Source of the DNA: Alphaproteobacteria bacterium
GTDB taxonomy: Bacteria > Pseudomonadota > Alphaproteobacteria > Rickettsiales > UBA8987
Direction of reading: 5' to 3'
Assembly (NCBI GenBank): GCA_031426355.1
Contig: JANPLD010000068.1
Location: 71,477 to 135,476 of the forward strand
Length of the DNA stretch: 64,000 nucleotides
The notes beneath the pieces were generated by a model that was given only the letters and a program-made list of their open reading frames with translations, ran no database searches and was not told the origin of the DNA. Shown here in pieces: positions 21,641-64,000 of the stretch. Position numbers and translations under genes: made by a program. Each line of letters begins with the position of its first letter. Within the stretch, counting starts at the first letter, position 1.

Positions 21641-22609
21641 TTAAAAAGCCTCGAAAGCATCTTCCCAAGTTCCCTGAGTTGCAGCCTTGGTATATTCTGT
21701 TACGCGGTTCTCGAAGAAGTTTGCGTGTTCTACACCGTTAAGGATCTCATCCATCCATGGAAGCGGATTTCTGCTGGTGCCATACATAGGTTGAAGTTCA
21801 AGCTGCATTAACCTTCTATCTGCGATATAGCGGAGGTAATTTTTTACATCTTTAGATGTTAAGCCTTGGATCGAGCCTTCGATATTAAATGCCAGATCAA
21901 CAAACGCGTCTTCATGGGTAATTATCGTGTCGCAGATCTTATATAATCTTTTGTTGAGTTCTTCGCGGTCGATCTCCGGATTTTCTTTTACGAAAGTATG
22001 GAATAACCTGATGATGGAATTAGTGTGAAGTGATTCATCACGAACAGACCATGTAACAATCTGCCCCATTCCTTTCATTTTACCGAAGCGAGGGAAGTTC
22101 ATGAGTATCGCGAATGAACCGAATAATTGCAGGCCTTCTGTGAAGGCACCGAACGCTGCAAGAGTAGTTGCTATATTAATGTTTGAATCAACATTGAACT
22201 GCTGCATGTAATCATATTTATCTTTCATTTCCTTATATTTCAGGAACTCAGAATACATAGTTTCAGGCATCCCCACGGTATCGATCAAGTGAGAATAAGC
22301 ATCAATATGAATAGTTTCCATATTAGAAAATGCTGCGAGCATCATCTGAATTTCAGTTGGCTGAAATACGCGGGAATAGTGCCTCATGTAACAGTTATTC
22401 ACTTCGATATCTGCTTGCGTGAAGAAACGGAATATCTGCGTAAGAAGTTGTTTTTCTTGCGGAGTAAGATTATTTTTCCAGTCTTTTACGTCATCGCCCA
22501 TTGGCACTTCTTCAGGGAGCCAGTGGATACGCTGCTGCGTCAACCATGCTTCATATGCCCAAGGATAGTTGAATGGTTTGAATATTGGTTCTGCTTTTAA
22601 GAGTGACAT
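21641..22609 (-). CDS. nrdB: Ribonucleoside-diphosphate reductase beta subunit (class I R2)
   Basis: 322 aa with the R2 ferritin-like fold signature (…FFTQADIEVNN…, SNMETIHIDAYSHLI, FGAFTEGLQLFGSFA, VRDESLHTN). Confidence 0.93.
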   Translation of the reverse strand: MSLLKAEPIFKPFNYPWAYEAWLTQQRIHWLPEEVPMGDDVKDWKNNLTPQEKQLLTQIFRFFTQADIEVNNCYMRHYSRVFQPTEIQMMLAAFSNMETIHIDAYSHLIDTVGMPETMYSEFLKYKEMKDKYDYMQQFNVDSNINIATTLAAFGAFTEGLQLFGSFAILMNFPRFGKMKGMGQIVTWSVRDESLHTNSIIRLFHTFVKENPEIDREELNKRLYKICDTIITHEDAFVDLAFNIEGSIQGLTSKDVKNYLRYIADRRLMQLELQPMYGTSRNPLPWMDEILNGVEHANFFENRVTEYTKAATQGTWEDAFEAF

Positions 22610-22616
22610 AAAATCC

Positions 22617-22668
22617 TAGAGTTTAGTGGTTAGAATTTAGTGGTCAGAAAACTAACTACTAAACTCTA
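22617..22668. repeat. Intercistronic repeat/hairpin element A (AGAGTTTAG family), between the glycosyltransferase-like stop and the nrdB start
   Basis: Plus strand TAGAGTTTAGTGGTTAG (22617..22633) pairs 16/17 with CTAACTACTAAACTCTA (22652..22668). Direct copies AGAGTTTAG (22618..22626) and AGAATTTAG (22632..22640) are 14 nt apart. It shares a 22/28-nt block with the element at 62632..62692. Confidence 0.6.
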
Positions 22669-23658
22669 ATTACTATTTACTAAATCAACCATATCTTGTG
22701 TAATATTTTTTGAGTTATACAACATATGGTATTTATTCCAACCTTTTTCTGCGATCAGATTTCTCTTCCCTTTATCTATTGTAAACTTCTGTATCTTTTC
22801 TGCAAGGTCTTCCCATTCACTATAATACACCGCTTCAACATCTGGCTCAAACATGGTTTGCAGCTGAGTTTTTTCGTGGATGATAGTAAGCAGGCCATTA
22901 CCAAATATCTGCGCGATCCTGTCAGAGGAATAAAGTGGCGGCTGATAAATATCTTCCACAAATTGCGGAAGATTTAAACCAGTATGGCACTTACGCATTT
23001 CGTCTAAATATTTCTGGCCGTAAGTAATATCCTTTCCCCATAAACCAAGAACATTGAATTTCACTTCGGGAAGATTTGTTTTCACGTAATGCAGGGTTGG
23101 TGTCCGGTAATCACCGCGACCACCAAAAAATATATCATATTCATGATCGGTTTTTTCAAAGCCTTTACCAGTATCTATTGAGCTATCAACCGGATTTGGA
23201 ATGTAGGAAACTTTTAATTCAGGATTTACTTTTTTAAAATCATTTAGCTGGTCGCCGGAAGTTGTAAGAAATAATGCATCTAAAACCGCGGCACGTTCGA
23301 GCAGATATTTTTTTATATGCTCAACCCATAACGCGTCGACATTTATTTCTGCGATCTTTATATTTTTATTTTCTTCCCTGATGATCTGTAGCGTCTCATT
23401 TCTTATCATGTCACAATGAGAAAGAAAAATAATTTCAGGTTTTAATTCCCGAACAGTTTTAATAAGTTTTTTATTTACTGAATTCTCGGAACCAAAACGC
23501 GATTTAAAAAAACCTTCCTGCCTTGCAAGATCACGATTTGAAAATTGGTATACGGAATGGTTATTTCTGATGAGGCCGAAATAGAATTTATAATCACAAT
23601 TATAAAACTGGTGATAATTTTTCTTATATCCGAAATTTCCTACAAATAATATCTTCAC
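22666..23658 (-). CDS. Glycosyltransferase-like protein (CgeB/DUF3880-like, GT-B fold suspected)
   Basis: 330 aa with a GTG start. MKILFVGNFGY... and the overall length and pattern resemble CgeB-type glycosyltransferases. The assignment is tentative. Confidence 0.45.
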   Translation of the reverse strand: MKILFVGNFGYKKNYHQFYNCDYKFYFGLIRNNHSVYQFSNRDLARQEGFFKSRFGSENSVNKKLIKTVRELKPEIIFLSHCDMIRNETLQIIREENKNIKIAEINVDALWVEHIKKYLLERAAVLDALFLTTSGDQLNDFKKVNPELKVSYIPNPVDSSIDTGKGFEKTDHEYDIFFGGRGDYRTPTLHYVKTNLPEVKFNVLGLWGKDITYGQKYLDEMRKCHTGLNLPQFVEDIYQPPLYSSDRIAQIFGNGLLTIIHEKTQLQTMFEPDVEAVYYSEWEDLAEKIQKFTIDKGKRNLIAEKGWNKYHMLYNSKNITQDMVDLVNSN

Positions 23659-23733
23659 AACTTCGTTGATTTTGTTTTCTTAGAGAAAATATAGGAAATA
23701 AAAATTATCTACACAAAATAAAGCATAAAAAAA

Positions 23734-23756
23734 GGCCCGGGAAATATCCTCGGGCC
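23734..23756 (-). terminator. Intrinsic terminator downstream of the 29-aa Lys/Ala-rich ORF
   Basis: GGCCCG (23734..23739) pairs with CGGGCC (23751..23756). The plus-strand A7 at 23727..23733 gives U7 after the hairpin on the minus strand. Confidence 0.7.
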
Positions 23757-23788
23757 TGTATATGTTTAAGAACCAGTAGAGCTCTTAA

Positions 23789-23878
23789 CTATTTTCTTTT
23801 AGCAGCAGTTTTTTTAGCAGCTGGTTTCTTAGCAGGTGCTTTTTTAGCAGCTGGTTTTTTCTTTGCTTTTGCAGCCAT
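23789..23878 (-). CDS. Small basic Lys/Ala-rich protein (histone-H1-like AKKP repeats), 29 aa
   Basis: Not in the ORF track because it is under 60 aa. The minus strand reads GGAGGAAACT-ATG GCT GCA AAA GCA AAG AAA AAA CCA GCT GCT AAA ... TAG, giving MAAKAKKKPAAKKAPAKKPAAKKTAAKRK. Strong SD and a GC-rich terminator about 30 nt downstream. Confidence 0.6.
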   Translation of the reverse strand: MAAKAKKKPAAKKAPAKKPAAKKTAAKRK

Positions 23879-24262
23879 AGTTTCCTCCATTTGTTTTTAA
23901 AAACAGATTTTAACATCTGTTCCCGAAAATAATTTTTCGGCGTACTTGGCATAAATACTTTCGTGCCGTTCCTGAATTTAAATATAACAAAAGTTTTTGT
24001 TTATAGGAAGTGTGAATATGCAATTTCCAATGCAGAATTTATCTTTATTCACGATTTGTGTGTTTTTAAACACAGAAGATATTTTGTTGTTCGAATTTAA
24101 AATATTTTTCTGTTTTTTAAACCTCTTGAAACAATATATTTTCTGCGCGTTACAGAAGGTAGAAGAAAAATATTTATTTTAGAATGAAAAATAAACTTCT
24201 TGGTCAGAAAGTTTTTTGGCCGGAAAAGTTTTTGTTCCGATTTATCAAAACTTTTAGGTAAA

Positions 24263-31594: not shown

Positions 31595-33124
31595 ATGGAA
31601 ACTAAAAAAAAATTAGCCGCAGTAGAAAACAAAGCGGAAACTGCAAACGAGCAGGTAAAGGAACTCCCTCACAATTTTGATGCGGAGCAGTCTTTGCTTG
31701 GCGCTCTCCTCAATAATAATGAATATCTTAACAGGGTTGGGGATTTTTTAATGCCGGAGCATTTCTATGAGCCGCTTCACCAGAAAATATACCAGTCGAT
31801 AAATACTTTTTACGACAAAGGTATAATCGCGAATGCAATAACTCTCAAGAACCAGTTCCAGAATAATGAGGCAATGGAAATCCTTGGCGGACAGAATTAC
31901 CTTCTCCAGCTTAGCTCTAAAGGTATGACCATTATAAGCATCCGGGAATTTGCGACGCTGATCTACAATCTTTATATCAGCCGCCAGCTGATTGATGTTG
32001 CCAATGAAATGCTGGAGCAATCATATAATACTTCCGGCACAGAAACTGCAACTGCGCAGATAGAACAACCTGAAAGTAAATTATTTAATCTTGCTTCCAC
32101 AGGATTCAGTGAGAAAGGTTTTATACACGCTAAACATGCACTTGTGAATGTTGTGAAAATGGCAGACCTTGCTTCACATCATCAGGATAATTTTAATGGC
32201 GTTACTACGGGATTCAAATTCCTCAATAACCTCATTGGGGGATTCAGTAATTCCGATCTTATAATTCTTGCTGCCCGTCCTTCCATGGGTAAAACTGCAC
32301 TCGCTCTTAATTTTGCCATGAACGCGGTTAAGCATGTGAAGAATAAATATGATGAGGATCTTGAGAAATATAAGAATGACCCGAAGGATAAAGAAGCTCC
32401 GGTAATGGGTTCAGTTGCGGTTATTTCCTTAGAGATGTCATCTGAGCAATTATCGACGCGTCTTATTTCCATGAAAACGGGTATAAACGCTGCAAATATC
32501 AGGCTTGGAAGGCTTAACAAACATGGTCCTAATGATGAGCTGGCAAAACTGGTTGATGCCTCTGTGGAACTCCAGCAATTGCCGCTGTTCCTTGATGATA
32601 CGCCTGCCCTAACCATTTCCGCGATAAGAACAAGAGCAAGAAGATTAAAGCGCAAGCATAATATGCAGTTCCTGATCGTCGATTATTTACAGCTTATTTA
32701 CGGCGTAAGTAAAAAGTCAGAGGCAAGCAGGGTACAAGAGATATCGGAGATATCAATGGGACTTAAAACGATTGCGAAAGAGCTTAATATTCCTGTTATG
32801 GCACTCTCTCAACTTTCAAGAAAAGTGGAAGACCGCCCTGATAAAAAACCACAGCTTGCTGACTTAAGGGAATCAGGCTCAATAGAGCAGGATGCTGACG
32901 TTGTGATGTTCATTTACCGTGAAGCCTATTATGAGGAACGTAAAAAACCTTCTGAAGAAAGCAGCGGAGATTTTACCGCATGGCGTGAGAAGATGGAGAA
33001 GATCGATAACGTATCAGAGATAATAATCGCCAAGAACCGTAACGGCCCCATCGGTAACGTAACACTTCACTTCAATAAGAACACCACCGAATTCACTGAC
33101 CCTGCACCTGAGTATGAGAGCTAG
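31595..33124 (+). CDS. dnaB: Replicative DNA helicase DnaB
   Basis: LPHNFDAEQSLLGALL (N-terminal domain), ARPSMGKTALALNFA (Walker A), LIVDYLQL (Walker B) and IAKNRNGP. Confidence 0.96.
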   Translation: METKKKLAAVENKAETANEQVKELPHNFDAEQSLLGALLNNNEYLNRVGDFLMPEHFYEPLHQKIYQSINTFYDKGIIANAITLKNQFQNNEAMEILGGQNYLLQLSSKGMTIISIREFATLIYNLYISRQLIDVANEMLEQSYNTSGTETATAQIEQPESKLFNLASTGFSEKGFIHAKHALVNVVKMADLASHHQDNFNGVTTGFKFLNNLIGGFSNSDLIILAARPSMGKTALALNFAMNAVKHVKNKYDEDLEKYKNDPKDKEAPVMGSVAVISLEMSSEQLSTRLISMKTGINAANIRLGRLNKHGPNDELAKLVDASVELQQLPLFLDDTPALTISAIRTRARRLKRKHNMQFLIVDYLQLIYGVSKKSEASRVQEISEISMGLKTIAKELNIPVMALSQLSRKVEDRPDKKPQLADLRESGSIEQDADVVMFIYREAYYEERKKPSEESSGDFTAWREKMEKIDNVSEIIIAKNRNGPIGNVTLHFNKNTTEFTDPAPEYES

Positions 33125-33129
33125 TTAAT

Positions 33130-33188
33130 AGTTTGAAGATTGAAGTTTGAAGAATTTTCTTCCAACTTCCAACTTTAAACTTCCAACT
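33130..33188 (+). repeat. Intercistronic repeat/hairpin element B (TTGAAG / CTTCCAA repeats) between dnaB and the epimerase gene
   Basis: AGTTTGAAGATTGAAGTTTGAAGAA-TTTT-CTTCCAACTTCCAACTTTAAACTTCCAACT. GAAGTTTGAAG (33142..33152) pairs 10/11 with CTTCCAACTTC (33159..33169), with a further imperfect extension. The architecture (TAG stop, tandem-repeat arm, TTTTCT, inverted tandem-repeat arm, ATG) matches elements A and C. Confidence 0.55.
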
Positions 33189-33191
33189 ATA

Positions 33192-35903: not shown

Positions 35904-36293
35904 ATGGACTTAAGTAAAATTACATCCTTTGCGCTTCTTGAAGAGAAGATGAAATATAATGCCGACAGGCAGCAGGTTATCGCTGAGAATTTCGCTAATG
36001 TGGATACGCCGGGATATAAGAGGAAAGATATTGAGAAGCCTGATTTTGCTAATATTTTTAATGAAAAGCTTTCAGCACTTACTCCGGCGCAGACAAATTC
36101 GAAGCATATTGGCGCGGTTGATGATGATTCGATAAATGGCAGAAAGGTCATAACTTCCGAAGATAAAGTTCAACTTGATATGGAAGCGTTGGAAATGATG
36201 CAGAACAGCACATCTTATTCAGAGGCTAACGCAACTTATAAAAAGATGCTTTCCCTTGTAAGGGTTGCAATAGAAGGAAGCGGAGCGAGATAA
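35904..36293 (+). CDS. flgB: Flagellar basal-body rod protein FlgB
   Basis: …RQQVIAENFANVDTPGYKRKDI… is the rod-protein N-terminal motif. First gene of a flgB-flgC-fliE cluster. Confidence 0.85.
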   Translation: MDLSKITSFALLEEKMKYNADRQQVIAENFANVDTPGYKRKDIEKPDFANIFNEKLSALTPAQTNSKHIGAVDDDSINGRKVITSEDKVQLDMEALEMMQNSTSYSEANATYKKMLSLVRVAIEGSGAR

Positions 36294-36763
36294 TGAAAGA
36301 ACTTGTTTACATATTTTTATTTATAATTTGCGTGCCTTCGGTTTCAGAGGCGGCGGGCGGTCTTAAAAAAGCCCTGACAAGTTCGGCCTCTGCAATGAAA
36401 GCGCAGTCTGAAAGGATACGTGTCATCACTGAGAATATCGCCAACTCTGATACAACAGGTCTTACTGAAACTGAGGAGCCTTATAGAAGGAAGACCGTAT
36501 ATTTTGAGAATGTCAAAGATGATGAGACCGGCGCAAATGTAGTAAAAGTAAAAAAGATTGCCCGAGATGATAGTGAGTTCAAACTTATTTACCGCCCTGA
36601 TCACCCTGCGGCTAACGCAGATGGGTATGTTCGCTTCCCAAATGTTGACAGGAACCTTGAAAACATTGATATTCGTGAAGCGCAAAGAAGTTACGAAGCT
36701 AATGTTACAGCAATTGAAGTAACTAAACAGATGATGGAAAGATCACTAGATTTAATGAGATAA
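36293..36763 (+). CDS. flgC: Flagellar basal-body rod protein FlgC (with unusual hydrophobic N-terminal extension)
   Basis: SASAMKAQSERIRVITENIANSDTTG and the C-terminal DGYVRFPNVDRNLENIDIREAQRSYEANVTAIEVTKQMMERSLDL are FlgC signatures. There is a 1-nt TAATG overlap with flgB. Confidence 0.88.
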   Translation: MKELVYIFLFIICVPSVSEAAGGLKKALTSSASAMKAQSERIRVITENIANSDTTGLTETEEPYRRKTVYFENVKDDETGANVVKVKKIARDDSEFKLIYRPDHPAANADGYVRFPNVDRNLENIDIREAQRSYEANVTAIEVTKQMMERSLDLMR

Positions 36764-37090
36764 ATGACAAAAAGAAAAGTTATGACCAGTTTAAATATGT
36801 TAGATGCAGTTTCTGCCTATAATAAAACTTCCTCTCTTGACGGGAAAGGTTTTGGCGTATCACAGGCACCTTCCAGCGATTTTACCTCTCTGGTGGAAAA
36901 AGCACTTAGTGATACTAAAGATAAGTTAGATATTGCGGAAACCTCAACAGCTGGCTCAGTAAAAGGTGATATCAGCCTTGAAGACCTTGCAATAGCAGTT
37001 GCCAATGCGGAAGTAAGCCTCAAGACCTTAGTTTCCATTCGTGATAAACTTGTCAGCGCATTGCAGGATATTCTAAGGATGCCTATTTAG
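36764..37090 (+). CDS. fliE: Flagellar hook-basal body complex protein FliE
   Basis: 108 aa. The C-terminal …AIAVANAEVSLKTLVSIRDKLVSALQDILRMPI matches the FliE C-terminus (…vRnK…AYqeImrMqv). Position after flgC. Confidence 0.8.
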   Translation: MTKRKVMTSLNMLDAVSAYNKTSSLDGKGFGVSQAPSSDFTSLVEKALSDTKDKLDIAETSTAGSVKGDISLEDLAIAVANAEVSLKTLVSIRDKLVSALQDILRMPI

Positions 37091-37127
37091 GTTGATGGTT
37101 GATAGTTCATAGTTTATTGAAAATATC

Positions 37128-38439: not shown

Positions 38440-40821
38440 TCATAATAAAACCTCTGTAATTGCCACCTCCCCCCGCCCGACTTTATCAGACATCTGGTAT
38501 ATTCTGGCGGTAAAGTTAGTTGCTAGAGAACCAAAGTCAGAACTCTGCATACCTTCAGTATAATTAAAACTTGGAGAGGTTATTTTCTCAGTCCTTTTTA
38601 AAGTAGAAGCATCGAAAATGTCTATTTCATATTCTTCCTTAGTTTCAAAAACAGGGATCTCTACACTTGAAGAAAAAGAGATATTACCGCGTGATCTTCT
38701 CAGCCATTGTATATTGATGTCATCATCCATTTCCCTTTCGGCAGAAATATGGACAGGTGAATATGGCTTTAATGAATTTCCAGAAAAGTTAATTTCTTTT
38801 GCGGTAACATCATCTGCACTTTTACCAAAGGTTACAGCTTTTATCCAGATAGTTTGGCCGATCTGTGAAACAGGCATCTCTATCTTTAAAACATTCTCAT
38901 CAAGCAGGATGAACCTGCTGCCTGCAGGATGAGTTTCACCTGCGTAATTTTCTGTACCCTGACGGCCGCGATATAAGTGGCTAAGCGTATATTTATTTAA
39001 TTCTGTCTGGTTGATATTTTTAAACTGAAAATTTTCATTTCCTATCAAAGCTAAATTTCCAAATGATTGTAGATTATCTTCTGTTAGTGATTCTAAAGTT
39101 CCACCGATCAAATTTATATTCAGCTGATTAATTTTATCAATAACAGGGGAGCTGAATTGTAACAGTTCAGTTTCAATAACTCCCATTGTTGCAGGGGAAA
39201 CAATATCAGTTATTTTCTGAAAACCTTCTGTTGCGGAAATATTGCTTACATATATTGCGCAACCATTCCAGTTAGAAGAAGTACCGCAGACAGCCAGATG
39301 CAGATATGCTTTATCTATTGAAGTTTCATTTGGCAAATGATGTGTATCAATTATCTCAAAATAAGTATCGGAGATAGGTTCCAGATTTTCACTGTTATAA
39401 TCAGTCGTAAGTTCCTCATTGGCGGAAGAATAAAAATCATTTTCAAATCTTATTGCAGATATTTTTATCTTGCCTTGCTGCGTGAGTGAGGAAATTATTT
39501 TCAGCTTATAGGTCTCATCATTTTTAATGATGTTCACTATATCGCCTGCTTCAATATATAAATATTCAGATGGCAGTGAGAATTCTATCTTCTGAGTTAT
39601 TGCTTCCTCTTCAAGAAGTAAAGTTTGTGCTATTTTTTCAGCATATGATCTGTTCAATAATAATGGCAGATTAATCTCAATACCGGATGAATTATTTTTA
39701 TCTTCGCGCGAGATGTCAAAATTTCCGACAAGGTAATTATTATTTTCCGATATATAATTAAGGCTGAGGTTTGAAGTAATATTCAGGCTAGATGCATTTT
39801 CAAACAGCATGGTCTCATTATTCTTTTCGAAAATTAATCTGCTAAAATCTATATTTATTTCTTCAGTGTTTTCACTCTGCCTTGGGAAGAATTTCACTTT
39901 ATCACTTTCAACAAAATCAAAAAAGTAACCTGATTGTAATGTTCGCAGGGCTTCTAAAGCTGTGATAGCACCCGAGAGATTATATCCGCTGACAAGTTTA
40001 TTAACATTATTTATTTCTGGAGTTTCAATACCGGCTTTTTTGCAGAGGTCAGAAATTATATTCTTAAGTTCAGCTACCCCTAATTTTCCATTTATCCAAT
40101 GGCCGCGGCTCCATAAATTTCCATCACCCCAGACATTTTTCATATCAGGGTAAAATGGATAGGACCTCGCATCATAAGCCCAAATAAATTTCTGCTCCAC
40201 CATTTCAGAATTCTGCCATTTTGCCAAGGTTCCCTGAAGCGCCGTTCTTTGCGCCAGAAAATCAATATATCCTTTGGATAAATATGGCAGGTTGCCATCA
40301 ACTGAATCAGGATTATAAAAAACATTTGGCTGATTGGCGCAGCCATCAACTGAAGGAAAACCAAACTCAGTGAACCATATTTTTTTACTTTGTGGTACAA
40401 ACTCTGTTTGTTCTGAATCAGGATTTGTATGAGTATTATTCCACCAATATTCAATATTTTTCCAAGCATCTTGAGGTGTTAAATCTGCTTTTACAGTGCG
40501 TTCTTCATCAGTGTAATACCAGTCATAACCTTCACCATTTTCCCAGCCGTCTATAATTTCTTGCTTATCGTATATTCCATTCTGCTCCCTGTCAGTGAGT
40601 GGGAAATATGCATCGATACCGATGAAATCTATATTGTCTGATGCCCATAGAGGATCCATATTATACCAGCCATTTGTGGAATGGTATTCACTCCAATCCG
40701 CTGCGTAACCTATTTTGGTTTCAGACCCCATTATTGTTTTAACTTCCTCTACAAGGGCTATCAGTTCGTCCACTGCCGAGAAACTATCATCAGCATCCTG
40801 AATTTGTGTCAGGCCTTTCAT
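38440..40821 (-). CDS. GTA host-specificity/tail-fibre protein (RcGTA g15-like), C-terminal fragment; the frame is actually open up to the frameshift at 40910..40915
   Basis: The 793-aa ORF begins inside the conserved …VDAFIIGSEMKGLTQI…TKIGYAADWSEY… TIM-barrel-like region of g15-type proteins. Upstream in the same frame, FFTKTNGYNNFILHYADLVKDKVDAFIIGSE is also readable. Confidence 0.8.
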   Translation of the reverse strand: MKGLTQIQDADDSFSAVDELIALVEEVKTIMGSETKIGYAADWSEYHSTNGWYNMDPLWASDNIDFIGIDAYFPLTDREQNGIYDKQEIIDGWENGEGYDWYYTDEERTVKADLTPQDAWKNIEYWWNNTHTNPDSEQTEFVPQSKKIWFTEFGFPSVDGCANQPNVFYNPDSVDGNLPYLSKGYIDFLAQRTALQGTLAKWQNSEMVEQKFIWAYDARSYPFYPDMKNVWGDGNLWSRGHWINGKLGVAELKNIISDLCKKAGIETPEINNVNKLVSGYNLSGAITALEALRTLQSGYFFDFVESDKVKFFPRQSENTEEINIDFSRLIFEKNNETMLFENASSLNITSNLSLNYISENNNYLVGNFDISREDKNNSSGIEINLPLLLNRSYAEKIAQTLLLEEEAITQKIEFSLPSEYLYIEAGDIVNIIKNDETYKLKIISSLTQQGKIKISAIRFENDFYSSANEELTTDYNSENLEPISDTYFEIIDTHHLPNETSIDKAYLHLAVCGTSSNWNGCAIYVSNISATEGFQKITDIVSPATMGVIETELLQFSSPVIDKINQLNINLIGGTLESLTEDNLQSFGNLALIGNENFQFKNINQTELNKYTLSHLYRGRQGTENYAGETHPAGSRFILLDENVLKIEMPVSQIGQTIWIKAVTFGKSADDVTAKEINFSGNSLKPYSPVHISAEREMDDDINIQWLRRSRGNISFSSSVEIPVFETKEEYEIDIFDASTLKRTEKITSPSFNYTEGMQSSDFGSLATNFTARIYQMSDKVGRGEVAITEVLL

Positions 40822-46556: not shown

Positions 46557-46592
46557 ATTATGCTCTATATTATGTTCTAGATTATGTTCTAG
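46557..46592 (+). promoter_or_regulatory. Three tandem 12-mers (ATTATGYTCTAK) upstream of recA; candidate operator/promoter element
   Basis: ATTATGCTCTAT / ATTATGTTCTAG / ATTATGTTCTAG at 46557..46568, 46569..46580 and 46581..46592. They end 29 nt before the recA ATG and contain GTTC-N8-GTTC. Confidence 0.45.
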
Positions 46593-46621
46593 TTTTCAAA
46601 AAAATTAATGATGTAGGTTTT

Positions 46622-47641
46622 ATGGATAAAAAGAAAGCATTAGAAACAGCACTTAGCCAGATCGAAAAAGCATATGGCAAAGGCTCGATAATGAAGCTTG
46701 GTGACAAGGAACATGTAAGTGTTGAAGCTATTTCAACAGGTTCTCTTGGTTTAGATATGGCTTTAGGAATTGGCGGAATACCGCGTGGTAGGGTAATCGA
46801 GATATTTGGCCCGGAAAGTTCTGGTAAAACTACGCTTACACTTCACATTATTGCAGAAGCGCAGAAAAAAGGCGGAGCTTGTGCATTTATAGATGCTGAG
46901 CATGCACTTGATCCTGTTTATGCAGAAAAACTTGGTATTAAAATTGATGATCTTATTATTTCCCAACCGGATACTGGTGAACAAGCATTAGAGATAGTAG
47001 ATACTTTAGTTCGCTCAGGTGCAGTTGATGTTGTAGTAATCGATTCCGTTGCGGCACTTGTACCAAAAGCTGAGATCGAAGGTGAAATGGGTGATGCACA
47101 AATGGGTGCTCAAGCAAGGCTAATGAGTCAAGCGCTTCGTAAACTTACAGGCTCAATATCAAAAACAAACTGTACGGTTATTTTCATTAACCAAATCCGT
47201 CAGAAAATTGGCGTTATGTTTGGTAACCCTGAAACTACCACAGGTGGTAATGCCCTTAAATTCTATGCTTCTGTGCGTTTGGATATACGTAGGACTGGTG
47301 CTATCAAAGATAAAGACGTAAATATCGGGAACTTGACAAGAGCAAAGGTTGTTAAGAACAAAGTTTCCCCTCCTTTCAAACAGGCTGATTTTGAAATAAT
47401 CTACGGCGAAGGTATTTCCCGTATCGGTGAGATAATTGATATGGGCGCAAATGCCAATATCATTGAAAAAGCTGGTTCATGGTTTGCTTATAATGGCACA
47501 AGGATAGGCCAAGGTAAGGAAAATGCTAAGCAATATCTCAAAGATAATCCGAAAATAGCTAAGGAAATTGAAGAGAAGATAAGGGCGCAAGCTGCTTCAC
47601 TTACCACTACCATAGCAAATTCGGAAGAGGATGCAGCTTAG
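46622..47641 (+). CDS. recA: Recombinase RecA
   Basis: [35 protein letters not shown] (Walker A), [22 protein letters not shown] and [37 protein letters not shown]. Confidence 0.98.
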
Positions 47642-62156: not shown

Positions 62157-62618
62157 TTATTTCTTTTCAGAACTTTTGATATTGTCGACGAAATCCTCGA
62201 AATCGCCTGCTTTGCTGAAATCTTTATATACAGATGCAAAACGTATATAGGCAACTTTATCTAGCTTGGAAAGCTCACGCATCACTTCCTCACCAATGAT
62301 GTTTGAAGTTATTTCGTTTTCACCTAATTTTTCGAATTTGCTGACTATCTTATCAACTATCGCTTCTATCTGCGCTTCAGTTACCGGGCGCTTTCGCGTT
62401 GAAAGCTGGATAGAGCGGGTGATCTTATCCCTATCAAATAATTTTTTCTCACCATTTCTTTTGGAAACAACAAGTTCACGAAGCTGCACTCTTTCAAAAG
62501 TCGTAAAACGCGAATCACATTTCGGGCAATATCTGCGGCGGCGTATAGAGCTGCCATCCTCAGAAGGTCGGGAATCTTTCACCTGTGTATCGTGAAAACT
62601 GCAAAACGGGCAACGCAT
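62157..62618 (-). CDS. nrdR: Transcriptional repressor NrdR
   Basis: [42 protein letters not shown] is the zinc ribbon, followed by an ATP-cone domain. 153 aa. Confidence 0.95.
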
Positions 62619-62631
62619 TCTATTAGTTGTT

Positions 62632-62692
62632 AGAGTTTAGTCTTTAGAGTTTAGAGGATAGAAGAAAAACTAAACTCTGTAAACTGGACTCT
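62632..62692. repeat. Intercistronic repeat/hairpin element C (AGAGTTTAG family), between the glyA stop and the nrdR start
   Basis: Plus-strand AGAGTTTAG occurs at 62632..62640 and 62646..62654 (14-nt spacing). The inverted CTAAACTCT is at 62670..62678 (a perfect 9-bp stem with the inner copy, plus an imperfect outer extension to 62692). A 22/28-nt block is shared with element A. Confidence 0.6.
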
Positions 62693-62697
62693 TTTAA

Positions 62698-64000
62698 CTA
62701 GAAACAAGCGTCATAAATAGGGAATTTAGCGCAAAGTGCTTCAACCTTATTTTTAACTTTTGTTTCTGTTTCAGTGTTATTTTCAGGGTTTTTAGCAAGA
62801 CCATCAAATACATCACCGATAAGATTTCCAATCTCTTCGAATTCTTTTGCACCAAATCCGCGGGTAGTTCCTGCAGGAGTTCCTAAGCGAACGCCTGAAG
62901 TAACGAAGGGTGGTTGTGGGTCAAAAGGGATAGCGTTCTTGTTACAAGTTAAACCTGCTCTTTCTAAAGACTCTTCCGCTGCTTTACCTGTAAGATTTTT
63001 AGGACGGAGATCACATAAAACAATGTGGTTGTCAGTTCCGCCGGAAACGATATTCAAACCGCGTTTGATAAGAGTTGCTGCGAGGATACGGGCGTTATCT
63101 ATAACCTGTTTTGCATATATCTTGAATTCAGGAGTGTTATCTTCCTTAAAGCAAACTGCCTTTGCAGCAATCACGTGAACTAATGGGCCGCCCTGTATAC
63201 CAGGGAAGATAGCTGAATTGATTGCGCTGGCTAAAGTTATATCATTACCTTTTGCTGTTTTACCAACTGCTTTTTCAGGGAAGTTAGAAAGGATCAAGCC
63301 GCCTCTAGGGCCTCTTAAAGTTTTGTGGGTAGTTGATGTTACAACATCTGCATATGGAAGTGGTGATGGGTATTCACCGGCTGCAACTAAGCCTGCAACG
63401 TGAGCCATATCAACGAGGAAATAAGCGCCAACTTTATCAGCGATTTCACGGAATCTTTTCCAGTCAACAACTCTTGGATATGCAGAGAAACCTGCGATTA
63501 TCAATTTCGGTTTATGCTCAATAGCGAGCTTTTCAACCTGATCATAATCAATAAGGCCATCAGCTTCTTTAACGCCATACTGAATAGAGTTGAACCATTT
63601 ACCTGACTGGTTTGGAGCTGCACCATGAGTCAAGTGACCACCTGCTGCAAGTGACTGGCCGAGAATAGTATCACCCGGCTTTATAAGGGCGGTAAACACT
63701 GCCTGATTTGCCTGAGAACCTGAATTTGGCTGAACGTTAGCGTATTTAGCGTTGAATAAAACGCAAGCTCTGTCTATTGCAAGCTGCTCAACTTTATCGG
63801 CATATTCGCAGCCGCCATAATATCTTTTTCCCGGATAACCTTCGGCGTATTTATTGGTAAATACCGAACCTTGAGCTGTCATTACTGCGCGTGATGCGAT
63901 ATTTTCAGAAGCAATAAGTTCTATTTGATTTTGCTGTCTTTTGAGTTCACCATCAATAGCGGATTTAAGTTCGCTATCAGTTTCTGCATAAGATGCGGTA
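62698..64000 (-). CDS. glyA: Serine hydroxymethyltransferase (5' end just beyond the window)
   Basis: …[39 protein letters not shown]… and [16 protein letters not shown] (PLP-Lys). The reading frame stays open upstream of the track's Met (63882) to the window edge (…[28 protein letters not shown]…). Confidence 0.95.

Follow-up and report, generated by a model that had tools for sequence, protein, structure and literature searches.

Between glyA and nrdR, in a 64,000-nt stretch of alphaproteobacterial DNA (the window), lies a short element of direct and inverted repeats whose parts recur in front of nrdB. Is it an operator through which nrdR would be autoregulated together with nrdB, as a sequence-only reading of the locus had mainly proposed, an RNA element that would insulate or attenuate glyA-nrdR read-through, or something of another kind? 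The evidence does not support the view that the element before nrdR is an NrdR operator, and the operator of nrdB is a separate, canonical pair of boxes. What fills the gap between the two genes looks like a patchy, fast-turning hairpin, which is found at nrdB and nrdR in a Rickettsiales-like clade.

Anatomy of the repeat element

The glyA-nrdR spacer (79 nt, 62619-62697 of the minus strand; glyA is identified as SHMT by a Pfam match) is occupied over its whole length by roughly ten diverged heptamers arranged as an inverted array, units of the form nnnnnAG coming first and CTAAnnn units second. Read in the sense direction, this array, copy C, runs TAG (glyA stop, 62698-62700) TTAAAAGAGTCCAGTTTAC AGAGTTTAG TTTTTCTTCTATCCT CTAAACTCT AAAGA CTAAACTCT AACAACTAATAGA ATG (62616-62618). 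Divided into units, it opens with TAG TTAAAAG AGTCCAG TTTACAG AGTTTAG and, after the middle block TTTTTCTT, continues as CTATCCT CTAAACT CTAAAGA CTAAACT CTAACAA CTAATAG A. The earlier layout of the element before nrdR proves exact on the minus-strand sequence, and the distances given to the start codon, 13 nt in copy C and 8 nt in copy A before nrdB, are both right. An additional imperfect left copy, AGAGTCCAG, which the sequence-only reading lacked, lies 14 nt upstream. The 7-nt period of the spacer as a whole was likewise absent from that reading.

Copy A belongs to the same family. Its first half reads TAAATAG TAATTAG (glycosyltransferase stop) AGTTTAG TAGTTAG TTTT and its second half CTGACCA CTAAATT CTAACCA CTAAACT CTAGGAT, followed by TTT and the nrdB ATG; its 9-mers are laid out as AGAGTTTAG-N18-CTAAATTCT-N5-CTAAACTCT-N8-ATG. 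Exact 9-mers number three before nrdR and two, with one near copy, before nrdB. These five occurrences compare with 0.45 expected in the window, none of 100 shuffles reaches five, and within the 64 kb the exact 9-mer is confined to the upstream loci of these two genes.

On the plus strand, TAG recurs at period 7 six times at 62624-62661 (copy C) and four times at 22617-22640 (copy A), and CTA five times at 22652-22682 (copy A). The runs have 4-6 members, and their units are diverged, not identical; TAG or CTA runs at periods of 5, 6 or 8 are found nowhere in the window. The copy C spacer gives an autocorrelation signal at lags 7 and 14, and heptamer units are often ordered A-B-A-B, which produces the 14-nt period. 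A weak promoter-like match within copy C, TTTACA-N17-TATCCT (62683..62655), agrees at 9 of 12 positions, about the chance level, and its TATCCT falls in the loop of the predicted hairpin.

Table 1. Features of the nrdR and nrdB loci and other heptamer arrays in the window, with the evidence for each.
Feature	Position	Strand	Evidence
nrdR	62157-62618	-	Pfam Zn_ribbon_NrdR and ATP-cone
Copy C, heptamer-periodic inverted array	62619..62700	-	Sequence, period-7 TAG run, autocorrelation, RNA fold, covariance model
Copy C hairpin, 3' arm	62624..62654	-	Sequence, 9-mer count, RNA fold
Copy C loop, 15 nt, pyrimidine-rich, UUUUUCUUCUAUCCU	62655..62669	-	Minimum-free-energy and centroid structure
Copy C hairpin, 5' arm	62670..62700	-	Minimum-free-energy and centroid structure
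nrdB	21641-22609	-	Pfam Ribonuc_red_sm
Copy A, same family as copy C	22610..22683	-	Sequence, period-7 runs, autocorrelation, RNA fold, covariance model
Canonical NrdR operator of nrdB, separate from the repeat element	22686..22732	-	Both boxes with all six conserved positions
Putative nrdB promoter	22714..22741	-	By-eye reading, same layout in relatives; absent from promoter scanner list
Third heptamer palindrome, other unit, between dnaB and NAD-dependent epimerase gene	33122..33191	+	Autocorrelation, fold, Pfam flanks
Direct heptamer array without inverted arm, between fliE and hemC	37088..37127	+	Autocorrelation, Pfam flanks

Predicted fold and covariation

As RNA, the copy C spacer folds at -22.0 kcal/mol (z = -3.9) and copy A at -22.7 kcal/mol (z = -3.5), and each is more stable than all 200 of its 200 shuffles. 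The predicted copy C structure is a 24-bp segmented hairpin that begins at the stop codon of glyA and ends 5 nt short of the nrdR start codon. Its 5' arm pairs through the segments 62696-62700 (which includes the UAG stop of glyA), 62688-62692, 62681-62685 and 62670-62678 (AGAGUUUAG), and its 3' arm through 62646-62654 (CUAAACUCU), 62639-62643, 62632-62636 and 62624-62628; both direct copies of CTAAACTCT, at their 14-nt period, lie in the 3' arm. The antisense strand of copy C folds as well or better (-27.3 versus -22.0 kcal/mol), so the fold carries no mark of sense RNA, rather than DNA, as the active form; strand-specific G:U pairing as a sign of sense RNA was dropped on the same grounds. 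A reading of the loops as DnaA or CtrA boxes was also set aside, the matches by eye reaching at most 5-6 of 9 positions.

The whole window has no match to Rfam at gathering thresholds, and at relaxed E-values (up to 10) it yields only sub-threshold hits to eukaryotic miRNA or snoRNA hairpin models. A covariance model built on the family scores copy C at 97.9 bits and copy A at 74.8 bits, both being members of its training set. Two of its three hits in the window precede nrdB and nrdR, and both are training copies; by our own post hoc estimate, over about 45 spacers, the chance of two in three hits falling at nrd genes is ~0.006. The best non-training hit (E = 0.029) is the palindrome between dnaB and the epimerase gene. 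In 83 kb of relatives, a sample biased by the choice of loci around nrd genes, the only further hits are the nrdB or nrdR leaders of L079, L080 and L011. Among only four sequences, RNAalifold scores 3 of 15 pairs as carrying compensatory changes, and one stem pair appears across relatives as U:A, G:C or C:G (in DNA, T:A replaced by G:C or C:G).

Turnover among close relatives

The sequence-only reading had staked its proposal on conservation of the repeats in orthologous spacers; they are present, with covariation, before nrdB in L081 and before nrdR in L015, and are replaced or absent elsewhere. In L081 (NrdB 91% identical) AGAGTTGAG pairs with two copies of CTCAACTCT, where the window pairs AGAGTTTAG with CTAAACTCT, and in L015 (NrdR 94% identical) AGAGTTCAG pairs with CTGAACTCT. 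The CTNAACTCTAACAAC unit family precedes nrdB in L081 but nrdR in the window and L015. The direct repeats keep a steady period of 14 nt across family members and the loop measures 15, 18 or 29 nt; such variation in the inverted-to-direct distance suits a hairpin loop and not a fixed protein-binding geometry.

At the same site, L079 and L080 carry TTGATGG/CCATCAA units that form hairpins of other sequence, and they differ from each other by exactly one 7-nt unit, GTTGATG. L011 has CTAACCC units before nrdR with a fold that is not significant (z = -0.5); the persistence of start-proximal direct repeats there, with no significant hairpin, hints that the direct repeats may matter themselves. L078, at 98% NrdB identity, has a 12-nt spacer with no element, and the element is likewise missing from L012-L014, L084-L086 and L001-L008. 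Its loss in L078 and other relatives argues against an important function. A scan for NrdR over one genome per species returned 10 loci, and the motif is kept in no relative at 78-88% identity. Public assemblies gave no exact match to the NrdR protein of the window; a NrdB identical to that of the window does exist (P0121, and the locus L077 of Logan run SRR20217183, viewed at ±3 kb).

Other heptamer arrays in the window and in metagenomes

Copies A and C are two of several such arrays: autocorrelation at lag 7 marks four loci in the window, versus at most one at any other lag not divisible by 3. All four arrays extend from an upstream stop codon to 2-13 nt short of the next ATG. The palindrome between dnaB and the epimerase gene reads TAG TTAATAG TTTGAAG ATTGAAG TTTGAAG AATTTT CTTCCAA CTTCCAA CTTTAAA CTTCCAA CTATA, then ATG, and folds at -23.4 kcal/mol (z = -6.5); the direct array between fliE and hemC reads TAG GTTGATG GTTGATA GTTCATA GTTTATT GAAAATATC, then ATG.

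The exact triple motif is found in 61 metagenome contigs, where it forms part of heptamer palindromes that adjoin unrelated genes and occur in every orientation. These contigs (309 kb) contain 115 lag-7 regions versus 0-10 at other lags. A single contig can hold near-identical dispersed copies, as in L033 (70 of 85 positions), and many different heptamer units can occur within one contig. We also considered a stop-codon ladder, in which the stop-bearing arm would always come first on both strands, so that ribosomes arriving from either direction would run into stops in all three frames; counted only over metagenome heptamer palindromes outside the selection of the search pattern, it gave 9 versus 5, which is not significant, and the idea was dropped. 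A missing Shine-Dalgarno motif proved uninformative as a mark of genes preceded by the element, such motifs being seen in 9 of 44 window genes.

A separate NrdR operator at nrdB

An NrdR box spans 16 bp, its conserved positions being C4, A6, A8, T9, T11 and G13, and boxes are paired across linkers of 15-16 or 26-27 bp (PMC13584703). The window has a single pair that scores 12/12 (0 expected from shuffles), and it belongs to nrdB: box 1 ATACCATATGTTGTAT (22717-22732), a 15-nt linker and box 2 ACACAAGATATGGTTG (22686-22701). This pair is embedded in the 3' end of the glycosyltransferase gene and precedes copy A by 20 nt. A perfect pair with the 15-nt linker recurs in all eight nrdB relatives examined (L078-L081 and L084-L086 among them), and box 2 stands 15-99 nt before the ATG; the long leaders of 76, 83, 91 and 99 nt are exactly those with a heptamer palindrome. 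The putative promoter has a -35 element TTGGAA (22736-22741), a 16-nt spacer within box 1 and a -10 element TATAAC (22714-22719), a layout that recurs in L084 (TTGGAA-N16-TATAAT) and L080 (TTGCTT-N16-TATAAT). Copy A lies downstream of this promoter and should therefore be transcribed.

Upstream of nrdR we find no NrdR box pair, the best pair overlapping 62600-63100 reaching 8/12 in position-specific scoring. The AGAGTTTAG element has none of the six conserved positions in register, and a direct reading of its 9-mers does not match the pattern. Its spacing differs as well: 5 nt separate the direct 9-mers from each other, and 15, 18 or 29 nt separate them from the inverted copy, against the linkers known for NrdR. 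The 9-mers as NrdR boxes are ruled out by this scoring. The proposed coupling of nrdR autoregulation with nrdB through a shared operator is not supported, the element having no box features and nrdB having its canonical pair elsewhere, in all relatives.

Interpretation

Under our best reading, the element is a slippage-prone heptanucleotide-repeat palindrome that would be transcribed as a leader or intercistronic stem-loop, with a putative function at that level. We regard the chances as about evenly balanced that copy C belongs to a small hairpin family of diverged 7-nt units, itself part of a wider class of heptanucleotide-repeat arrays, and acts as RNA. Arrays of this class lie between stop and start codons, gain and lose whole 7-nt units, and turn over fast among close relatives. 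The element would be active only once transcribed, as an interrupted stem-loop of about 24 bp, and would act on translation or RNA stability. At nrdB, with the NrdR-controlled promoter upstream of it, it would be part of the 5' UTR, and at nrdR it would form the intercistronic RNA of a glyA-nrdR transcript; in both positions the stem would link the stop codon of the preceding gene with the 30-40 nt before the start codon. Such a stem might make the start region less accessible to ribosomes and impede 3' exonucleases, like REP-type intercistronic palindromes, with an effect that is probably modest and dispensable.

The RNA element that had been put forward as the alternative to an operator gains partial support from the compensatory changes that keep the arms of the hairpin complementary and from the position of copy A after the putative nrdB promoter, while the part that it was to play, insulation or attenuation, is left unsupported by a stem with no T-run. 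A stable hairpin right behind a stop codon could indeed suggest an intrinsic terminator or attenuator, of glyA in copy C and of the glycosyltransferase gene in copy A. This is scarcely credible: the interrupted stem is A+U-rich, no T-run follows on either strand (AACAAC or GGATTTT comes next), the scanner found no terminator-like site in 62400-63000 or 22400-23000, and the genome does have terminators with a GC-rich stem and T-run, for example at 23733-23757. Since copy A lies downstream of the putative nrdB promoter, termination there would also silence nrdB. An NrdR operator, whose one point in favour is the position before two nrd genes, is just as implausible. To the missing boxes and linkers at the element and the perfect pair kept upstream of copy A is added that NrdR proteins bind heterologous canonical boxes (PMC13584703), which makes a box type private to this clade improbable. 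Direct 9-mers at 14-bp spacing with an inverted copy might instead be bound as double-stranded DNA by some other transcription factor; the exact 9-mers before both genes, their constant direct spacing and the overlap of the copy C repeats with the weak promoter-like match speak for such a site. We consider it very unlikely, because the inverted-to-direct distance varies, 14 bp do not make up an integral number of helical turns, copy A comes after the likely nrdB promoter and operator, and the 9-mers change jointly with their complement in relatives, so that the specificity of the protein must have shifted too.

A more serious contender, possible though on balance doubtful, would make the element a mere by-product, neutral or selfish: a palindrome-prone heptamer repeat made by slippage, akin in spirit to REP or MITE elements, that settles wherever a spacer tolerates it and leaves nrdR and nrdB unaffected. 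The patchy occurrence in very close relatives, down to the missing element of L078, the wholesale replacement of units in L079, L080 and L011, the one-unit difference between the first two of these, and the near-identical dispersed copies and many different units of single metagenome contigs are what this would predict, and heptanucleotides were reported to be commoner than any other long simple repeats in most prokaryotic genomes, which was attributed to polymerase slippage (PMC4679880). Against it stand the compensatory changes in the arms and the repeated use of the same two nrd spacers across lineages, and the enrichment at nrd genes in the window is hard to reconcile with random settling. 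That enrichment could point the opposite way, to a clade-specific post-transcriptional nrd regulon in which a hairpin with two alternative 3' partners is the target of a trans-acting protein or small RNA co-regulating nrdB and nrdR. The covarying 9-mer family before nrdB (window, L081) and nrdR (window, L015) and the covariance-model hits in the window and in the relatives favour it. We nevertheless rate it as quite improbable, given the biased sample of relatives, the presence of the same units beside unrelated genes in unrelated organisms, and the other unit sequences of L079, L080 and L011 and the absence of the element in L078, where the site of a trans-acting factor should be conserved.

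The heptanucleotide-repeat palindrome, if it is a generic element, does not explain the nrd association of the model hits in the window, nor the CTNAACTCTAACAAC units shared by nrdB and nrdR loci. Heptad-periodic inverted arrays might be an uncharacterised functional class of leader or intercistronic elements, spread over distant bacteria, one family of which had been recruited here for joint post-transcriptional control of nrdB and nrdR; we think this unlikely. The hairpin would then have two interchangeable 3' partners; ribosomes that finish at the upstream stop codon would open it, or a factor recognising the 7- or 14-nt period would bind it, and NrdR control would be supplemented by a further regulatory level.

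For annotation, the NrdR operator and likely promoter of nrdB are to be placed at 22686-22741, within the 3' end of the glycosyltransferase gene ahead of it, and nrdR gives no sign of NrdR autoregulation. More generally, a shared repeat that resembles an operator can be a fast-evolving structural spacer element, a warning for motif-based reconstruction of regulons. If the nrd association is true, the clade would offer a natural comparison for the effect of a heptanucleotide hairpin on expression, hairpin-bearing and hairpin-free leaders occurring in strains with 98% identical NrdB.

Comparison with known systems

HutP-type RNA sites consist of periodic triplets, UAG-N4-UAG-N4-UAG, and the element shares with them UAG or CUA triplets at a 7-nt period. 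In sister elements, however, the units are of UGA type or of other kinds, copy C shows UAG in only the first and the last unit of its sense 5' arm, and no HutP-like protein is visible in the window. Cyanobacterial STRR heptamers, reportedly described by Mazel et al. in 1990, are tandem heptanucleotide arrays in intergenic regions; they would be alike in being tandem, intergenic and of 7-nt period, and would differ in units and host.

REP palindromes act as barriers to exonucleases. Like REP and BIME sequences, the element is a short imperfect palindrome between co-directional genes and belongs to a dispersed family. Copies A and C, when read directly, have no common GTAG or CGTC end, and no RAYT transposase is seen in the 64-kb window; REPs, moreover, are palindromes of 20-40 nt with no internal 7-nt period, as opposed to a periodic element of about 75 nt. 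Effects of REP and BIME on mRNA stability and termination have been hypothesised (PMC3733652). With an NrdR box pair the element has in common that it is repeated, partly palindromic and upstream of an nrd gene, and it differs in having no 16-bp box, no conserved positions and no linker of 15-16 or 26-27 bp (PMC13584703).

A likeness in position and unit length is seen with the TAACTGA direct repeats, intergenic heptamers of marine Beggiatoaceae and some Cyanobacteria and Bacteroidetes (MacGregor 2015, PMC4679880). These arrays of 2-6 units stand directly before start codons, some of them over the upstream stop codon; their downstream genes have no common function, and close relatives have shorter, repeat-free spacers (PMC4679880). 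Our element agrees in its 7-nt unit, start-codon proximity, overlap with the upstream stop and lack of a clear Shine-Dalgarno motif, and the published 'split' sets, in which a related 7-mer stands between identical ones, recall its A-B-A pattern. It differs in its unit sequence, in its Rickettsiales-like alphaproteobacterial host and in a density of 3-4 arrays per 64 kb, and it is inverted and hairpin-forming, the published arrays being direct with one inverted case (PMC4679880). The heptanucleotide long simple sequence repeats of Mrazek et al. 2007, by the summary in PMC4679880, are similar in their 7-nt unit and slippage-type evolution, and differ from the element with its diverged units, few copies and inverted pair. 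With at least 2-3 head-to-tail 7-nt units, a position from stop to start codon, and variation by slippage and by presence or absence, the element has these features of a heptanucleotide array.

Heptanucleotide arrays upstream of nrdR and nrdB

Units of 7 nt make up the whole glyA-nrdR spacer, here called copy C, from the stop codon of the one gene (62698-62700) to the start codon of the other (62616-62618). The sequence-only reading had given its minus-strand string exactly and the layout of the related element upstream of nrdB (copy A) correctly; the 7-nt composition was absent from it, and its 14-nt period corresponds to two heptamers in an A-B-A-B pattern. In sense orientation, copy C reads TAG TTAAAAG AGTCCAG TTTACAG AGTTTAG / TTTTTCTT / CTATCCT CTAAACT CTAAAGA CTAAACT CTAACAA CTAATAG A ATG, and copy A reads TAAATAG TAATTAG AGTTTAG TAGTTAG TTTT CTGACCA CTAAATT CTAACCA CTAAACT CTAGGAT TTT ATG. 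The repeats themselves are real and non-random: counting both AGAGTTTAG and its complement, the 64 kb contain five occurrences where 0.45 would be expected, all of them within copies A and C. A scan of the window likewise places period-7 TAG/CTA runs of 4-6 members at the copy A and copy C loci only, with no such runs at periods 5, 6 or 8.

Positions of the arrays, their neighbouring genes and the NrdR boxes in the window
Feature	Position	Strand	Description
Copy C	62619-62700	minus	inverted heptamer array, glyA-nrdR spacer
nrdR	62157-62618	minus	NrdR zinc ribbon and ATP-cone
glyA			serine hydroxymethyltransferase; ORF upstream of nrdR
Copy A	22610-22683	minus	same family, upstream of nrdB
nrdB	21641-22609	minus	RNR small subunit
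NrdR box pair of nrdB	22686-22732	minus	ATACCATATGTTGTAT-N15-ACACAAGATATGGTTG; 12/12, sole perfect pair in the window
TTGAAG/CTTCCAA palindrome	33122-33191	plus	whole spacer between dnaB and NAD-dependent epimerase; -23.4 kcal/mol, z = -6.5
Direct array GTTGATG GTTGATA GTTCATA GTTTATT	37088-37127	plus	fliE stop to hemC start

The NrdR operator of nrdB

Copy C had been proposed as a possible operator through which nrdR would be autoregulated together with nrdB. Published NrdR sites are paired 16-bp boxes with conserved C4, A6, A8, T9, T11 and G13, separated by a linker of 15-16 or 26-27 bp, and we scored candidate sites by these criteria (PMC13584703). Neither the glyA-nrdR spacer nor the sequence upstream of it holds anything similar, the best score there being 8/12, and the canonical pair lies by nrdB; the operator reading of copy C, and with it any NrdR autoregulation by way of copy C, is therefore unsupported. 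Shuffled sequences gave no 12/12 pairs. The nrdB pair is placed in the last codons of a glycosyltransferase gene (22666-23658), 20 nt upstream of copy A, and recurs as an equally perfect pair in all nrdB relatives examined (L078-L081, L084, L085/L086, and L077, whose nrdB upstream region is identical to that of the window). NrdR control of nrdB is exerted through this conserved operator, which is separate from copy A. Conserved -35-like TTGGAA and -10-like TATAAC/TATAAT hexamers, read by eye, flank box 1 and suggest a putative nrdB promoter; if this is right, transcription would start in the linker and copy A would lie in the nrdB 5' UTR. Boxes and hexamers together (22686-22741, minus strand) fall entirely within the 3' coding end of the glycosyltransferase gene, a layout kept in relatives.

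The window holds nrdB as a solitary gene, with no nrdA within 64 kb. An 11/12 NrdR-like pair with a 15-nt linker (TAGCAATATATGGCCA ... AACCAATATCTTAGAA) at 11619-11665, in the 5' part of a recF-like gene, is probably due to chance, shuffles giving about 1.5 such pairs. The strongest lag-12 signal of the window is a 12-nt direct repeat, ATTATGTTCTAG, present twice at 46560-46595 (plus strand) about 30 nt upstream of an ATG at 46622, which might be an operator.

Compensatory changes in the predicted hairpin

As RNA, the whole copy C spacer is predicted to form a stem of four helices (5, 5, 5 and 9 bp) interrupted by small symmetric internal loops; at its base, UAGUU with the glyA stop codon pairs with AACUA, 5 nt ahead of the nrdR AUG. 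Fold energies are -22.0 kcal/mol for copy C (z = -3.9) and -22.7 kcal/mol for copy A (z = -3.5), and the antisense strands fold equally well. In every family member (both copies, the nrdB element of L081 and the nrdR element of L015) the stop codon of the preceding gene falls within the 5' arm. Among four sequences, 3 of the 15 pairs found by RNAalifold carry compensatory changes, and one stem position is U:A in the window, G:C in L081 and C:G in L015, while the loop from the inverted copy to the first direct copy spans 15, 18 or 29 nt. The arms remain complementary while their sequence drifts; such pair-preserving changes and variable loop length agree with the prediction for a hairpin, as against a fixed protein-binding site. 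The RNA element that the sequence-only reading had offered as its alternative is partly supported.

For this element, Rfam returned no family at the gathering threshold, and relaxed E-values yielded only sub-threshold eukaryotic miRNA hairpin models. An intrinsic terminator was rejected, the stem being A+U-rich and the T-run absent; classical terminators with a GC-rich stem and a T-run are in use in this genome, and a textbook example at 23733-23757 follows a very small Lys/Ala-rich ORF (MAAKAKKKPAAKKAPAKKPAAKKTAAKRK, about 23790-23880, minus strand). A repeat inside the coding sequence of this ORF produces a lag-15 signal at 23733-23885. Nor is it a strict REP element, as no GTAG or CGTC head is common to the copies.

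Turnover of the element among close relatives

The nearest species representatives of the uncultured Rickettsiales-like source are MAGs labelled uncultured Rickettsiales. Upstream of nrdR, L015 (94% NrdR identity) keeps the architecture, with AGAGTTCAG paired with CTGAACTCT. L011 (95%) has a heptamer array of other units (CTAACCC CTTAACC CTAACCC CTAGTCT), whose start-proximal direct repeats are retained without a significant hairpin, and L014 shows remnants only. Other genes are inserted between glyA and nrdR in L012 and L013 (one relative, 93%): small DUF4160 and DUF2442 genes (L012 59-301, L013 1539-1793) displace the spacer element. Upstream of nrdR in relatives at 78-88% identity, the motif is absent. 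Upstream of nrdB, L078 (98% NrdB identity) has a 12-nt spacer without the element, L079 (94%) and L080 (93%) carry a palindrome of TTGATGG/CCATCAA units and differ by exactly one 7-nt unit, L081 (91%) reads AGAGTTGAG-N29-CTCAACTCT-N5-CTCAACTCT, and the short leaders of L084-L086 hold no array. Box 2 is separated from the ATG by 15, 29 or 53 nt in leaders lacking an array, as against 76, 83, 91 or 99 nt in those that have one. Conservation across the orthologous spacers is mixed, the family being kept in L015 and L081 and, identical to the window, in L077; length changes come in whole units, and the element itself comes and goes between close relatives.

Heptamer arrays in other spacers

Lag-7 autocorrelation revealed two further arrays in the window, in the dnaB-epimerase and fliE-hemC spacers. 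The GTTGATG-type unit of the latter resembles the TTGATGG unit of the L079 and L080 nrdB leaders. The flagellar genes flgB, flgC and fliE (35904-37090) lie near a large minus-strand gene (38440-40821) whose GTA TIM-barrel, Phage-tail_3 and Rcc01698_C domains mark it as a tail gene of gene-transfer-agent type, here in a Rickettsiales-like genome. With a covariance model trained on the four family members and searched without filters, we recovered both nrd copies in the window, then the dnaB-epimerase element (E = 0.029), and no more; in 83 kb of relatives the model matched the nrdB leaders in L079 and L080 and the nrdR leader in L011, and nothing else.

The exact triple motif, sought in public metagenome contigs, turned up in 61 of them, with G+C from 32% to 66%. 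In those examined, the match always lies within an inverted heptamer array (units such as TAGAGTT, TAGATAG, TAGGGTT and CAGAGTT), in spacers beside unrelated genes such as rpsD- and ackA-like starts, and in every orientation. The 61 contigs hold 115 lag-7 regions in 309 kb, against 0-10 at other lags, with up to 8 per 7 kb; unit types are many, arrays direct and inverted, and near-identical copies dispersed. Some inverted arrays stand 90-150 nt apart, like terminal repeats of small mobile elements (for example L016 7849-8062 and 9773-10009). A distant alphaproteobacterial relative (L005, 64% NrdR identity) carries four CTAAnnn heptamers, CTAATAA CTAACTA CTAATGA CTAATCA, at 2987-3021, just 5' of the ATG after nrdR.

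Possible role and relation to known repeats

Two of the three covariance-model matches in the unbiased 64 kb precede the window's only two nrd genes, with a chance of about 0.006 that both would be so preceded (our own post hoc estimate, about 45 spacers). Units of one family, CTNAACTCTAACAAC, precede nrdB in L081 and nrdR in both the window and L015. Given this placement, the units common to nrdB and nrdR, and the repeats without a hairpin in L011, a clade-specific nrd function deserves mention, but we consider it rather unlikely. Most likely, the element would be transcribed as part of the nrdB leader (copy A) and of the glyA-nrdR intercistronic RNA (copy C), where the stem-loop would hide the 30-40 nt before the start codon and put a folded obstacle behind the stop codon of the preceding gene. 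Ribosomes terminating at that stop codon, within the 5' arm, would open part of the stem, an arrangement known classically from translational coupling by unmasking, which may apply here. Any effect on translation initiation or mRNA decay would be modest and dispensable. A weak promoter-like TTTACA-N17-TATCCT also lies within copy C (TTTACA-N17-TAAACT in L015), and any RNA initiated from it would be missing the 5' arm; we give this little weight, since the match is at chance level.

Copies A and C belong to the class of intergenic heptanucleotide repeats. Their closest published likeness is the TAACTGA heptamer repeats, which stand directly 5' of start codons and in some cases run over the preceding stop codon; there are 'split' A-B-A sets among them, and close relatives lack the repeats (PMC4679880). 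According to the same paper, heptanucleotide units were reported to outnumber all other long simple repeats in most prokaryotic genomes, with polymerase slippage given as the cause (PMC4679880). Within this class, copies A and C are an inverted, hairpin-forming array in an alphaproteobacterium.
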